Shown here: positions 19,747 through 22,476 of the stretch, piece by piece
Layout: every line of letters begins with the position of its first letter
How positions within the stretch are numbered: the stretch's first letter is position 1
NCBI GenBank assembly: GCA_002238585.1
Contig: MPMQ01000001.1
Coordinates: forward strand, 117,771 to 141,770
Length of the DNA stretch: 24,000 nt
Source: Kistimonas sp. bin40
GTDB taxonomy: Bacteria; Pseudomonadota; Gammaproteobacteria; Pseudomonadales; Endozoicomonadaceae
Direction of reading: 5' to 3'
Made by a program: the position numbers and the translations under genes
The notes under the pieces: generated by a model
Databases searched by the model: none
Seen by the model: the letters and a program-made list of their open reading frames with translations, nothing else
Told to the model about the DNA's origin: nothing

Positions 19747-20367
19747 ATGACCGTATCACATCAGAAAAACCCAGTTTCTCCCGTTTTTCGTCTGGCGGCC
19801 GCTGTGCTGACTTGCGTCCTGACTGGAGGCGCCCCGCTTGTTGCGGCCGAGCCTCAGAAAGGCAGGGCGGTTGAGATCGAGATGCCTGCATTCCATGCTG
19901 GTGAGTTCGACGACAGCGTTGCACAAATAGCCAGGGACATGCGCACGAGTTTTGCGGAAGGTGGCTTCCCCTACGCCAACCTCGGTGATATGCCTGCTGA
20001 TCTTCAGCGCAAGGGGTTTTCCGAAGAGGAAGTGACGGCCGGTGTGGTGGAGGGGGTTCAGTTTTATGTGGTGCGGCATTACATCGGTGCCAATGCCAAG
20101 GCTCTGTACAGCCATCAGGAAAGCAACAGCGTCCATGAGAGTGATTCCTGTGGCATGGGTGATGCAATCTCGCCGGAGGATGTAGGGATGATTCTTGAGC
20201 GTCGTATTGGTTCTCGCTTCGATTTACATAACACAGAAGTCAGGAAGGCCGCAGCTGTTGCCTCCTCCCGCACTCTGGCCCAGTACAGCATTCTGGTGCG
20301 TCCCAGCAAGGATTACCCCGGAAAAATGACTGTAGTTTCCTGCTCGACAGTCAAGTCAAGATTCTAG
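19747..20367 (+). CDS. Secreted hypothetical protein, paralogue family member 1
   Basis: ATG 19747 with GGAGG 5 nt upstream. Signal-peptide-like FRLAAAVLTCVLTGGAPLVAA|EP. Shares the motifs SFAE, FYVVRHY, a Cys-x3-G-x-D/G block, SILVRPS and a C-terminal Cys with the two downstream ORFs. Confidence 0.65.
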   Translation: MTVSHQKNPVSPVFRLAAAVLTCVLTGGAPLVAAEPQKGRAVEIEMPAFHAGEFDDSVAQIARDMRTSFAEGGFPYANLGDMPADLQRKGFSEEEVTAGVVEGVQFYVVRHYIGANAKALYSHQESNSVHESDSCGMGDAISPEDVGMILERRIGSRFDLHNTEVRKAAAVASSRTLAQYSILVRPSKDYPGKMTVVSCSTVKSRF

Positions 20368-20632
20368 TGGTCTGGATTCGACCGCGCTTTTCGGGTGCCT
20401 TCGTCCCCTGGCTCCTTCGGGAGCTGAGGCCGGGGCCTTTGACCGGGGGCGGGGGACATTAATGACAGGCTTGCCGGAAGACGACTTCGCGCCACCATTA
20501 TCTGAGAGCACCATTTATCGCCCCATGCGCGTGAAACGGGTTGGCGGGTTAGCTCGCCCCGCTATCTCAGGCTGCCGGTTGCCTCTTGTAACCTCGCGCT
20601 CTCAAGACATGAGGCGCGTCAGGGACACTGCC

Positions 20633-21448
20633 ATGTTGTATAGCGCTCGGGGAAGGTTTTTTCCTGTTTCACGCTGTTGCCGTCTGACGGCAGCTGCGTT
20701 GGCTTGCGTTTTTGCGAGCCTGGTTCCCTGCGCTGGCGTGGCGGCTGAATGGGGGTATCTGGTCGCCATGGAATCGGAGATGGAGAGCCATGACGACTAT
20801 GACCGGGTGGTCAATGGCATGTTATGGGAGATGCTTGAGAGCTTTGCTCGAATAGAAATCGGGAGGGAGCCAGAGTCAGACGCAGCCTCCCTCCCCGAAA
20901 GCTGCAGCTGCCATGCGGTTGTCTGGACTCTGGCTCGCTTTCTGGGGATTCGTGGCTGTTTCGCTCCAGCCCATGATGCCATTTCCGTTATGAATGACGA
21001 GACTCCGCCTCATCTAACAGACGAGATGGACGACAGCCTGCGCCGTCTTGTCCCCTATGAGATCCAGCAAATGTTCAGTAGAGAGCAGCTGTGGTCGCAT
21101 TTGTCTCGAAATGGTCTGTACTATGTCGTACGACAACGCACTGGTACGTCAAGGAATAAAGCTTGGCGTTTCTGGAATCTGGATCTCTCTGCGAGCAGTC
21201 TTGGTGTCAGCGCCGACAAGGTGACCGTCAGCAAGCACTGTGACTCCCGCCAAGGGCTTGACTCTGCGGGTGTAAGAAGCCTGGTGACTTCTGTTTTCAT
21301 ACGGCATGCCCGCAATCTCAGGTATCCCATTATGCGCTTGCCGCGCGTTGCAGGGTCTTTCGCTATTTTGGTTCGCCCCAGCGCACAATTCCCCGCACAG
21401 CTGGACCTCGACTATTGCACCTACCATGTGGATGTCGAGGAGGTGTGA
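20633..21448 (+). CDS. Secreted hypothetical protein, paralogue family member 2
   Basis: ATG 20633 is chosen because MLYSARGRFFPVSRCCRLTAAALACVFASLV... aligns residue for residue with the N-terminus of the 21715 ORF. Contains YYVVRQ, HCDSRQGL, MRLPRVAGSFAILVRPS and LDLDYCT. Confidence 0.65.
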   Translation: MLYSARGRFFPVSRCCRLTAAALACVFASLVPCAGVAAEWGYLVAMESEMESHDDYDRVVNGMLWEMLESFARIEIGREPESDAASLPESCSCHAVVWTLARFLGIRGCFAPAHDAISVMNDETPPHLTDEMDDSLRRLVPYEIQQMFSREQLWSHLSRNGLYYVVRQRTGTSRNKAWRFWNLDLSASSLGVSADKVTVSKHCDSRQGLDSAGVRSLVTSVFIRHARNLRYPIMRLPRVAGSFAILVRPSAQFPAQLDLDYCTYHVDVEEV

Positions 21449-21714
21449 GCACAGTGGCTGCTGTAATGTCGCCGTTGTTGATCAGCGGCTCTCAGGACAG
21501 AGCCCTGGACGTCTGCGGCCCATGGCGTACCAGTTCACAGGCCTGCCCCTGGTGCGTGAACACTGTGAAATCCAGGTGGCATCCGTCGGGAAGTGCTGGT
21601 GTTGAGCCAGACCGGTAGTCTGACGGCCTTGACACACTGATCGAAGAACTTCCTCTGGCATTGCTGCCTCCAAGCGGCTCACGTGTGGATTGAGAGCACC
21701 TGGAGGGGATCGCC

Positions 21715-22476
21715 GTGTTACACATGATTCGTAAAGGCCTTTTTTCGGGTTCAGGCCTGTGCAGCCTGACAGCAGGCGCGCTGGCCTGCGTTCTGGCGGG
21801 CCAGACGTCTTTTGCTGCTCCTGCGCTTGGCAGGTGGGGGAGTCTTGTCGACCTGCGATCGGATATGCCCCGCGACAACGAATATGCGTTGGCGGTGAAT
21901 ATCTCGCTGGGCAAGATGCTCGCGAGTTTTGCAGAAATACAGCTGGATGCGCCTCCTTGCGATGCCGCTGCTGAATATGGCCATTGCTATAAAGGCGTTG
22001 CCGGTGGGGGCGGCACAGAGCTGCCGCACATGACAACAGGAGTGCGCGAACGGCTGGCCAATGCAGCTCCCGGGGAGATCCAGCGCATGTTCGGTTATGA
22101 GGAGCTGGTGTCGAATGCGTTCCTGAACGGGAGATACTATGTGGTGCGTCAGTACTCTGGCCTTGTCAGACAACAACACTCCCCTCTAAGTAGCGGTTCC
22201 TGCATCCATGAGGTTGTGGCAAGCCTGGCACGAGGAACTTTCGACAATATCAGTACTGACCAGCAGTGTGACGCCCGGCAGGGACTGGCTCGTGATGATG
22301 CCGACGGGGTGGTGTCCTCTGTTTACAGGGAGCATATGCGCAATATAAGAGAGTCCACCATGCGCTTGCCCGGCGTTGCAGGTTCTTTCACCATCTTTGT
22401 GCGCCCCAGTGAACAAGTGCCTGGAACGCTGGACCTTGATTACTGCACTCAACAGCTGAATGTAGGGGAGGAGTAA
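21715..22476 (+). CDS. Secreted hypothetical protein, paralogue family member 3
   Basis: GTG 21715 with GGAGG 8 nt upstream. Signal-peptide-like LCSLTAGALACVLAGQTSFAA|PA. Contains YYVVRQ, QCDARQGL, MRLPGVAGSFTIFVRPS and LDLDYCT. Confidence 0.68.
   Translation: MLHMIRKGLFSGSGLCSLTAGALACVLAGQTSFAAPALGRWGSLVDLRSDMPRDNEYALAVNISLGKMLASFAEIQLDAPPCDAAAEYGHCYKGVAGGGGTELPHMTTGVRERLANAAPGEIQRMFGYEELVSNAFLNGRYYVVRQYSGLVRQQHSPLSSGSCIHEVVASLARGTFDNISTDQQCDARQGLARDDADGVVSSVYREHMRNIRESTMRLPGVAGSFTIFVRPSEQVPGTLDLDYCTQQLNVGEE

Follow-up and report, generated by a model that had tools for sequence, protein, structure and literature searches.

HrpL, an ECF sigma factor with a -35 GGAAC element, puts type III secretion systems and their effectors, E3-ligase mimics among them, under the same control as some accessory proteins exported through Sec. 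Immunity or inhibitor arrays are typically tandem, rapidly diverging, exported, disulfide-capable small proteins, and those of the type VI systems (Tli/Tai/Tsi type) consist of tandem, diverged, small paralogues with signal peptides. Intracellular bacteria have orphan substrates of type II secretion, such as Legionella NttE, that are likewise small, Sec-dependent, and lineage-restricted, whereas the bacterial F-box/U-box effectors (Legionella AnkB/LegU1, Ralstonia GALA/RipG, and E. coli NleG) lack a Sec signal peptide. In the RpoE (sigma-E)/AlgU regulon of the Gammaproteobacteria many members carry Sec signal peptides and the promoter is bipartite. The E. coli sigma-E consensus has the -35 element GGAACTTTT and the -10 element (T/C)GGTCAAAA with a 16-nt spacer preferred (PMC1312014), and the AlgU consensus is GAACTT-N16-17-TCtgA (PMC3819740). 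The hrp box is GGAACCNA-N13-14-CCACNNA (PMC10384996).

The window, which is the whole 24,000-nt stretch of Kistimonas sp. bin40 DNA that was analyzed, has a GC content of 57.3%, as does Kistimonas bin40 (57.3%). The area containing the three genes of interest, termed P1, P2, and P3, is arranged as follows.

18304..19401, + strand, orf365, an unrelated orphan gene for a putatively exported protein with a signal-peptide-like N terminus (MKNAIFPLLLALVPLSSHVQA)
19475-19500, terminator-like hairpin after orf365
19747..20367, + strand, P1, short-type member of 206 aa, predicted cleavage between VAA and EP after residue 35, corresponding to NCBI OXC07_01280
20633..21448, + strand, P2, long-type member of 271 aa, the longest ORF (from 20462) being 328 aa
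21715..22476, + strand, P3, long-type member of 253 aa with a GTG start, predicted cleavage between SFA and AP, corresponding to OXC07_00515
22546..22570, + strand, intrinsic-terminator-like hairpin and T-run after P3, inside the doubtful "orf86"
22949..24000, + strand, 5' part of an F-box + beta-propeller gene, the ORF being open to the window end (639 aa in the full locus)

The original prediction of three tandem diverged paralogues, with ORFs starting at 19747, 20633, and 21715, is borne out both in these coordinates and in the BLASTP comparisons. P2 and P3 are 37% identical across their full length (E=2e-51), P1 matches P3 with E=8e-7 and P2 in two segments (E=3e-6 and 9e-5), and the last 165 nt (3') of P2 and P3 have 72% identity in DNA. 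All the motifs described at the outset are found in the alignment (VLTCV/ALACV, VAA/FAA, SFAE/SFAR, (F/Y)YVVR(H/Q), the Cys blocks, and (I/F)(L/F)VRPS..P(G/A)..C(S/T)). A GGAGG-type Shine-Dalgarno sequence 5-8 nt upstream supports the starts of P1 and of P3 at its GTG, and the alignment supports the starts further, with homologues opening at the same Met. For P2 the gene callers chose the ATG at 20462 (328 aa); homology prefers 20633, though the Shine-Dalgarno sequence there is weak. A relationship of orf365 to the family is rejected, as BLASTP and hhalign show none; orf365 has no Pfam match and among 5.8e9 proteins matches only itself, OXC07_01285 of Kistimonas sp. No tRNA or Rfam features occur within the window. 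Judged from sequence comparison, P1, P2, and P3 are real genes and paralogues, and the family to which they belong is lineage-restricted, had not been classified before, and consists of small, putatively extracytoplasmic proteins.

The family comprises about 12 distinct members in public data, with 11 matched when 1.84 billion (1.84e9) representative proteins were searched exhaustively by HMM and 3 matches in a sequence search of 5.8e9 sequences. Seven paralogues, all with the OXC07_ locus-tag prefix, are spread over three loci in a single Kistimonas sp. MAG that comes from the sponge Aplysina aerophoba, the host being assigned via MKWU00000000 and SRR8093131, both from that sponge. The remaining members are at two or three loci in other metagenomes, where the samples tied to U-box-associated members are ERZ23495034, ERZ26693581, and ERZ27241794. 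Two pattern scans of the 185,579 GTDB species representatives, cultured Kistimonas and Endozoicomonas included, gave no relative. JGI metagenomes scanned for the U-box-associated clade gave no match, and those scanned for the long clade returned only three Aplysina loci, all already known. The family occurs almost only in a Kistimonas-like bacterium of A. aerophoba. Its members are always in tandem sets (five distinct loci), usually composed of one short type and one long type, and they split into a long clade and a loose short clade; identity among the twelve intact members falls to ~22% with the architecture still common to all. The loci sit in accessory regions, where remnants of toxin-antitoxin systems and phages also occur. 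A mobile-element or phage origin of the family is rejected, with no PHROG match and with tblastn searches of plasmid and phage collections empty, and membership of a defense system is rejected with no PADLOC match.

The signal peptides on which the original prediction depended are present in all 12 members. Each has an n-region with a charge of +1 to +5, a hydrophobic core of 12-20 residues (best 12-residue Kyte-Doolittle window 1.9-2.6), and a small-x-small (AXA-type) site at residues 31-39, directly after which the folded domain begins in the AF2 models; all 12 conform to the Sec/signal peptidase I pattern of a charged n-region, a 10-20 residue h-region, and small residues at -3/-1. Each protein would be made with a cleavable Sec/signal-peptidase-I signal peptide that directs it to the periplasm and possibly beyond. 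The AF2 models, built from the 12-sequence alignment, reach a pLDDT of 82.5 and a pTM of 0.81 for the mature part of P1 and values of 74 and 0.72 for P3, whose N-terminal residues have pLDDT <50 in the full-length model. In these models the exported protein would fold as a two-layer α+β domain with the predicted order β1-α1-(variable, disordered insert)-α2/α3-β2-β3-long α5-β4-β5.

This α+β fold is a candidate and may be new. The comparison by AlphaFold and Foldseek that had been proposed as a check gave no significant match in PDB or BFVD for either of the two good AF2 models, and Legionella NttE appeared only as a noise-level match (E=0.25, TM 0.21); in a further difference from NttE-type substrates, there is no sign of type II secretion for the P1-P3 family. 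The original failure to assign a Pfam family holds for all members, for which the Pfam run found none. No match at E<=1 common to members occurs in Pfam-A, NCBIfam, PHROGs, or PADLOC, the best single-member matches to curated profile libraries (E 0.03-0.2) are each to a different family, and a PDB sequence-profile search with the family finds no relative. The family counts as new only insofar as none of the libraries tested contains a relative, which does not imply a new mechanism.

A bipartite motif, GGAACTT-N16-TC(C/T)AA, is located upstream of 10/11 family members, 33-64 nt before the start, and the gap between its two 8-nt blocks is constant at 12-13 nt. Scores were calculated with a PWM trained on family sites only, for which a random 230-nt stretch scores at least 14 with probability 0.003. 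In the window the motifs are the following.

18226..18253, + strand, ECF/sigma-E-like motif upstream of orf365, CGAACTTT-N12-GGGTCCAC, PWM score 14.9, between the TANGO2 stop (18223) and the orf365 start
19660..19688, + strand, ECF/sigma-E-like motif upstream of P1, GGAACTTT-N13-GACTCTAT, exact-pattern match, leave-one-out PWM score 22.6, ending 58 nt before the start codon
21645..21673, + strand, ECF/sigma-E-like motif upstream of P3, AGAACTTC-N13-GCCTCCAA, score 19.9 (leave-one-out 12.5), ending 41 nt before the GTG
22890..22919, + strand, weaker ECF-like motif upstream of the F-box gene, GGAACTTG-N~14-GGTCTCAGA, exact-pattern match, PWM score 15.0 with a 14-nt gap, ending 29 nt before the start

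The exact pattern is matched three times in the window compared with 0.47 expected, each time on the coding strand and upstream of a gene start. P2 has no motif of its own (best score upstream of either start <=2.3) and is probably co-transcribed with P1. Beyond the family the motif precedes orf365, the two downstream F-box genes (the second, a paralogue further downstream, having GAAACTTC..GTGTCTCT with a score of 10.4), and several U-box-family genes flanking members elsewhere. PWM matches are present at 10/11 family genes and 9 non-family island genes compared with 0/~30 other (housekeeping) genes, with a Fisher p=3e-5 for island versus housekeeping genes in groups that were drawn after the scores were seen. 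Leave-one-out scores are low at two family sites (P0002, 7.7; P0012, 3.1). A sigma-70 promoter scan of the region is at background level, and no sigma or anti-sigma gene is present in the loci examined.

Compared with the RpoE/AlgU (ECF02-like) consensus (PMC1312014, PMC3819740), the bipartite form GGAACTT-N16-TC(A/C)AA, the preferred 16-17 nt spacing, and the position 30-65 nt ahead of the start are shared, and the promoter pattern is found at 10/11 family genes. We infer that the motif is the promoter of an RpoE/AlgU-type ECF sigma factor. The "RpoE/AlgU" label could stand for another ECF sigma, because many ECF groups share a -35 GGAAC. With HrpL regulons the locus shares the ECF-type -35 GGAAC and the putative co-regulation of E3-ligase mimics with Sec-exported proteins; it differs from those regulons in that none of the family loci contains type III genes. 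A reading of the motif as an hrp box is rejected, as the spacing exceeds that of the hrp box by 3 nt and the -10 reads TCCAA instead of CCAC: the distance from the 8-mer to the CCAA is 17 nt here, GGAACTTT forms the -35, and CCAC occurs in the -10 at one site only.

The F-box and U-box domains of the neighboring genes score above the Pfam cutoffs, the F-box-like domain with 33.1 bits against a cutoff of 24.3 in the full protein from the near-identical locus L007. Any likeness to the bacterial F-box/U-box effectors lies in these neighbors, which are the F-box + beta-propeller gene in the window and L007, and the U-box family (with a C-terminal U-box) beside members at L012, L019, and L017; the 558-aa gene adjoining the L017 pair is a U-box family homologue. 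The family itself has no F-box or U-box and has the Sec signal peptide that is absent from those effectors. At L014 there is no E3-like neighbor, and at L001 a distance of 8.6 kb separates the family from the nearest propeller gene related to F-box genes. The F-box/U-box neighbor proteins have no signal peptide and would need another export route, so a functional link to the Sec-exported family would be indirect. Kistimonas genomes are generally rich in F-box genes (PMC12491435), and adjacency of the family to them could therefore be due to chance.

These features suggest, with about even chances by our estimate, that the Sec-exported α+β proteins belong to an ECF-sigma regulon common to the family and the eukaryote-like E3-ligase mimics, of which they would be the exported arm at the host interface. 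The first description of the genes as surface or effector proteins stays conditional, and what points that way is solely the gene neighborhood and the common promoter motif.

Lineage-specific periplasmic members of the core sigma-E regulon, serving folding, outer-membrane, or LPS homeostasis with no host role and with coincidental proximity to F-box/U-box genes, would be a rather unlikely alternative. A sigma-E/AlgU-type promoter combined with a signal peptide is exactly the character of the core regulon, the abundance of F-box genes in Kistimonas raises the odds of chance adjacency, and L014 has no E3-like neighbor. Core envelope functions are, however, widely conserved, whereas no GTDB species representative, cultured Kistimonas and Endozoicomonas among them, has the family, which is nearly confined to a sponge-symbiont lineage and has no sequence or fold similarity to any described RpoE/AlgU regulon protein. 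The family is also multi-copy and fast-evolving (dN/dS 0.36-0.52) and placed in accessory regions close to remnants of toxin-antitoxin systems and phages, and the same motif here precedes E3-like F-box and U-box-family genes, which do not encode envelope proteins.

The tandem, diverging, exported, and disulfide-capable build of the family also fits an array of immunity proteins or inhibitors that neutralize envelope-attacking enzymes (host lysozyme, proteases, or competitors' type VI effectors), and regulation of the envelope-stress type would suit such a defense. This reading is improbable: genes for a cognate toxin, VgrG, PAAR, Hcp, lipase, or amidase are present in 0/5 loci, and neither PADLOC, nor Pfam, nor the fold searches link the proteins to known families of immunity proteins or lysozyme inhibitors. 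The likeness to type VI immunity arrays ends at the gene arrangement, as no effector, VgrG, PAAR, or Hcp neighbor occurs in the window, L001, L007, L012, L014, or L017.

The cysteines bear on whether the proteins are soluble. If the Cys following ALA in the signal peptide were that of a lipobox, the proteins would be lipid-anchored in the membrane; P2, P3, and P0005 do match a loose PROSITE-style lipobox ([..]-L-A-C), and lgt is located 3 kb upstream, though it is a housekeeping gene. Lipid anchoring is nevertheless very unlikely. This Cys, originally described as conserved, is not a feature of the family, being Ser/Ala in about 5-6 members (P0006, P0009-P0013) and Trp in a strain variant of P3 that is 99% identical. 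In P1 and P0002, T or V occupies position -1, at least 10 hydrophobic residues and then the conserved AXA site follow downstream of the Cys, and the folded domain starts past that site in the AF2 models. The family does not show the L-[AS]-[GA]-C lipobox with an invariant Cys, and the lipoprotein reading is rejected. In the mature part, the C-terminal Cys is found in 12/12 members and the mid-protein Cys in 9/12. The AF2 models place them mid-strand in β5 and β3, respectively, where they could form a disulfide in most members (Cys135 with Cys199 in P1).

The dN/dS of 0.36-0.52 between paralogues and orthologues shows that the family evolves fast yet under relaxed purifying selection. The proteins had been expected to be diversifying; although the central insert is disordered and varies between members, selection as a whole is purifying, and pN>pS occurs in one 30-codon window only (P1 versus P0005) and is not significant. 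Five other assemblies match the window at 99.3-100% identity, which leaves too few differences for strain-level pN/pS. The ORFs are intact in five independent assemblies, and together with the dN/dS this identifies them as genes and not the untranscribed pseudogenes that had been considered. A reading as non-functional leftovers or over-called ORFs, suggested by the missing annotation and by homologues in only a few metagenomes, is effectively refuted by twelve intact members of one architecture at identities down to ~22%, a dN/dS well under 1, strong Shine-Dalgarno sequences and conserved promoter blocks, and confident AF2 folds from the 12-sequence alignment.

In the regulon reading, an RpoE/AlgU-type ECF sigma would drive transcription of the family, and with such a promoter the genes would switch on at sigma release, classically in envelope stress. 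The family would be the exported arm of an accessory host-interface regulon and the eukaryote-like E3-ligase mimics its cytoplasmic or translocated arm. The family proteins would most likely be binding proteins and not enzymes, acting at the envelope or at the interface with the host, and their variable α1-α2 insert would be the specificity-determining surface. A more specific version, which is tentative and on balance doubtful, is a symbiont regulon in which envelope stress on host contact or phagocytosis triggers the ECF sigma to switch on the E3-ligase mimics together with the new-fold Sec-exported family in long and short pairs, perhaps as heterodimers.

The wider question is how sponge symbionts escape digestion by a bacteria-eating host, a role for which eukaryote-like proteins are usually suspected, and how such proteins are regulated and with what partners they act. 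Should the link to the E3-like genes be coincidental, the family would be one more lineage-specific family of the kind common in metagenome-derived genomes. The handles on the question are a seven-member exported family without known relatives in a symbiont lineage, confident structural models of a possible new α+β fold, and a simple promoter motif, by which the regulon can be listed genome-wide and which, across two different organisms, ties the family to genes of the F-box and U-box kinds. If the more specific version is true, the family would represent a new class of symbiosis factors with a recognizable promoter signature, usable to enumerate the whole regulon.

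P1, P2 and P3 belong to a real, lineage-restricted and unclassified family of paralogous proteins with signal-peptide features, encoded in tandem sets. The three genes lie at the coordinates given by the original prediction:

19747-20367, P1, 206 aa
20633-21448, P2, 271 aa (alternative longer form from ATG 20462, 328 aa)
21715-22476, P3, 253 aa, GTG start

The motifs quoted in that prediction are all seen in a three-way alignment, and the proposed paralogy is borne out, with P2 and P3 37% identical end to end (E=2e-51; 72% DNA identity over the final 165 nt), P1 matching P3 at E=8e-7 and P1 matching P2 in two segments (E=3e-6 and 9e-5); its observation and main interpretation stand. 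P1 and the GTG of P3 are preceded by strong GGAGG-type Shine-Dalgarno sequences, and in the alignment homologues from elsewhere begin at the corresponding Met. For P2 the gene callers took the longer form; homology favours a start at 20633, where the Shine-Dalgarno sequence is weak.

The window comes from a bacterial chromosome. Its housekeeping genes are those for an M48 peptidase, a PP-loop ATPase, two DAO/Mqo oxidoreductases, Obg, thymidylate synthase, Lgt and TauE, with a TANGO2-like gene among them, and its GC content is 57.3%; bin40 is a Kistimonas of 57.27% GC (PMC5649159). Over nine compared ORFs (15585-22781) it is identical to MKWU01005066.1 and 99.3-100% identical to four further assemblies; MKWU00000000 and SRR8093131 are both from the sponge Aplysina aerophoba. 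At NCBI these proteins are titled 'hypothetical protein [Kistimonas sp.]' and carry OXC07_ locus tags. The DAO/Mqo-type FAD oxidoreductase genes are tandem paralogues at 3260-4600 and 4854-6479, the second with an N-terminal DUF2788 segment, and a perfect 9-nt tandem repeat, GCATACAGC, spans 12527-12588 in 6.9 copies. A complex tandem array at 13382-14110 has units of ~155-173 nt (TRF scores 719-768), each with 18-nt sub-repeats CCCGTCATTCCyGCGCTC and the hairpin GTCATTCCCGCGAAGGCGGGAATCC; C is strongly over-represented on its + strand (GC skew -0.29), it has no Rfam match, and the ORFs that gene calling places there are probably spurious.

Among 5.8 billion proteins a word-indexed search gave three matches; an HMM search, exhaustive over 1.84 billion cluster representatives, gave 11 proteins at E<=1e-3, and a profile search added one further member, P0013; none was found in 185,579 GTDB species-representative genomes or in plasmids and phages. 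Seven paralogues occupy three loci within one Kistimonas MAG, and the assemblies carrying the remaining members have a GC content of about 60-61%.

Loci of the family
Kistimonas locus 1: P1-P2-P3, in the window
Kistimonas locus 2 (L001): P0002 (255 aa) then P0005 (205 aa), with a HicB module and Mu-portal fragment on one side and the his operon on the other
Kistimonas locus 3 (L014): P0006 (255 aa) then P0010 (194 aa), adjoining nagA
L017, other metagenome assembly: P0009 then P0008
L012 and L019, other metagenome assemblies: P0012 or P0013, then P0011

By this arrangement the members occur in tandem sets at every locus. The neighbour-joining tree separates a 'long' clade (P2, P3, P0002 and P0006), a looser 'short' group (P1, P0005, P0010, P0009 and P0008) and a clade of P0011-13; at each Kistimonas locus both types, short and long, are found together. 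This extent, about 12 proteins with seven in one sponge symbiont, and the paired long/short organisation are additions of the present analysis. L001 also contains, 5 kb downstream of its family pair, an AAA_15/AAA_21 ATPase and HNH nuclease pair (16451-17806 and 15749-16438, - strand), a module resembling a defence system, which together with the HicB module and Mu-portal fragment upstream marks the locus as accessory DNA. The 522-aa neighbour of the L014 pair (1-1566, - strand) has a DUF1601 repeat match (28.5 bits vs a cutoff of 25), weakly resembles type III chaperone-like and proteasome-lid segments, and is possibly a further protein of eukaryote-like or effector type.

An ECF-type motif, conserved and correctly spaced, is common to the family and to neighbouring E3-like (F-box and U-box) and orphan genes; it was absent from the original prediction. 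Alignment of the 120 nt upstream of each member reveals two conserved blocks amid unalignable sequence, GGAACTTT and (GAC)TCCAA, the second with variants TCTAT, TCAAA, TCTGA and TCCGA. The gap between the 8-nt blocks is 12 or 13 nt throughout, equivalent to GGAACTT-N16-TCNAA, with 33-64 nt from the motif end to the start codon. The motif is present in 10 of 11 members, the exception being P2, which is probably co-transcribed with P1. RpoE/AlgU promoters have the same architecture, with a -35 GGAACTTTT, a -10 (T/C)GGTCAAAA and a strong preference for a 16-nt spacer for E. coli sigma-E (PMC1312014) and GAACTT-N16-17-TCtgA for AlgU (PMC3819740), and the likeness suggests that transcription is probably by an RpoE/AlgU-type ECF sigma factor. 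The HrpL hrp box, GGAACCNA-N13-14-CCACNNA (PMC10384996), does not agree in spacing.

Within the 24-kb window there are three exact occurrences of GAACTTN{15,18}TCYNW vs 0.47 expected, each on the + strand and directly upstream of P1, P3 or the F-box gene. A weight matrix trained on the family's own sites only, two of which are weak under leave-one-out scoring, reaches at least 10 upstream of nine non-family genes.

Weight-matrix scores upstream of non-family genes
orf365, the orphan gene upstream of P1: 14.9
two F-box genes: 15.0 and 10.4
300-aa orphan in L014: 12.7
four U-box-family transcription units in L012: 13.8-16.6
Fic-like gene in L012: 11.6

For about 30 genes of housekeeping or other type the upstream score stays at or below 6.8. 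The chance per random 230-nt stretch is 0.022 for a score of 10 and 0.003 for 14, so that with ~48 non-family genes tested about one chance match is expected where nine are observed. All nine are of orphan or eukaryote-like class (Fisher p=3e-5, the class split having been made after the fact). The singleton orphan orf365 (18304-19401) has a predicted signal peptide, its own ECF-like motif at 18226-18253 and a terminator-like hairpin at 19475-19500, and matches only itself among 5.8e9 proteins. A DksA/TraR-type zinc-finger gene on the - strand (1182-1649; Pfam 55 and 39 bits) is preceded on that strand, at a distance of ~260 nt, by a high-scoring sigma-E-like motif (1912-1940, score 17.7), and the 219-aa + strand ORF overlapping the gene (975-1634) is probably not a gene. 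Nor, probably, is 'orf86' (22524-22784); the terminator-like hairpin that follows P3 (22546-22570) falls inside it, and it has neither homologues nor an ECF motif.

Directly downstream of P3 are two paralogous F-box and beta-propeller genes, the first starting at 22949 and leaving the window, with F-box domains (33 and 31 bits) above Pfam cutoffs. In L012 and L019 the family pair lies within an array of paralogous proteins, several ending in a U-box (28.7 bits vs a cutoff of 21.4), and immediately upstream of the L017 pair a gene of 558 aa is a member of the family that makes up this array (35% identity). Kistimonas genomes are rich in F-box genes (PMC12491435), making chance adjacency in the window likelier, but this richness explains neither the shared promoter motif nor the independent U-box association. 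Signal peptides are absent from the E3-like proteins. It is quite possible that the family forms part of a host-interface regulon together with these E3 mimics. That its members are ordinary envelope-stress proteins with no host role would also suit a sigma-E-type promoter and is rather unlikely, given the class of the other genes with the motif. The Fic-like gene within the L012 U-box array (15076-16597; Pfam Fic 23.6 bits vs a cutoff of 24), with its ECF-like motif upstream, is apparently frameshifted, with HPFEDGNGR in another frame. In L007, a near-identical locus, tandem orphan paralogues of 215 and 248 aa (15292-15939 and 16137-16883; 42% identical) lie about 5-7 kb past the window's 3' end; they have no signal peptide, Pfam match or ECF motif, and a repeat rich in Asp, Val and Ser lies close to the N-terminus of the second.

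The description of the family as unrecognised is upheld. Pfam, NCBIfam, PHROGs and PADLOC assign no family to any member, the best profile match among all PDB sequences has E=1.6, and Foldseek of the P1 and P3 models against PDB and BFVD gives nothing at E<=1e-3 and no TM-score >0.28, the top matches being unrelated methyltransferases, SecB, PelC, hotdog thioesterases and Cyt toxins. The absence of a recognised family is solid, in the sense of no relative in any tested library, and with sequence and Foldseek comparisons both without a match a new fold is a provisional reading of the models. AlphaFold2 models, built with an 11-12-sequence alignment, have a pLDDT of 74 and pTM of 0.72 for full-length P3, and 82.5 and 0.81 for mature P1. 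The elements follow one another identically in the two: b1 leads into a long helix, a1, after which come a variable segment and short helices, then b2 and b3, a helix of 25 residues and finally a hairpin of b4 and b5. Disorder marks the variable segment (pLDDT<50 in P3), where P2 has an extra insertion of ~22 residues. Conservation is highest at the Gly before b1, a Y/F in a1, the P-E-I opening the second helical block, (F/Y)YVVR(Q/H) in b2 with its Arg invariant, the (V/M)(R/G)PS..P(G) turn joining b4 and b5, and the Cys in b5. The mid Cys, in b3, is present in 9/12 members, and a b3-b5 disulfide would be plausible. It is a tentative suggestion, more doubtful than not, that the proteins bind rather than catalyse and that the variable a1-a2 insert is their specificity surface; a function as periplasmic immunity or inhibitor proteins is improbable, PADLOC having given no match.

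In each of the 12 members the N-terminus is positively charged and is followed by a hydrophobic core, with a small-x-small site falling at residues 31-39 (VAA|EP, SFA|AP and ASA|DL are examples); model confidence is low over the signal peptide, and the domain opens directly behind the predicted cleavage site. On these features it is very likely that the proteins are exported by way of Sec and signal peptidase I. The Cys of the hydrophobic core, called conserved in the original prediction, is not: it is Ser or Ala in five members and Trp in a strain variant 99% identical to P3, and hence it is not a lipobox Cys, so that lipoproteins, for which it might have spoken, are very unlikely.

The genes are constrained yet fast-evolving under purifying selection, with dN/dS of 0.36-0.52 between paralogues and orthologues at dS of about 0.4-2 (NG86). 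Diversifying evolution, as earlier proposed, is not demonstrable at these values, which also indicate that the genes are not pseudogenes; ORFs without function, orphan as these are, can be practically dismissed. P0012 (L012 10001-10591) and P0013 (L019 64-663) are near-identical over codons 1-75, including synonymous sites, and divergent after (pS 0.3-0.5), and are a recombination or gene-conversion mosaic.

The sigma-E-type promoter, newly added here, ties the family to eukaryote-like ubiquitin-ligase mimics. Among uncultured symbionts, orphan families are a frequent find.
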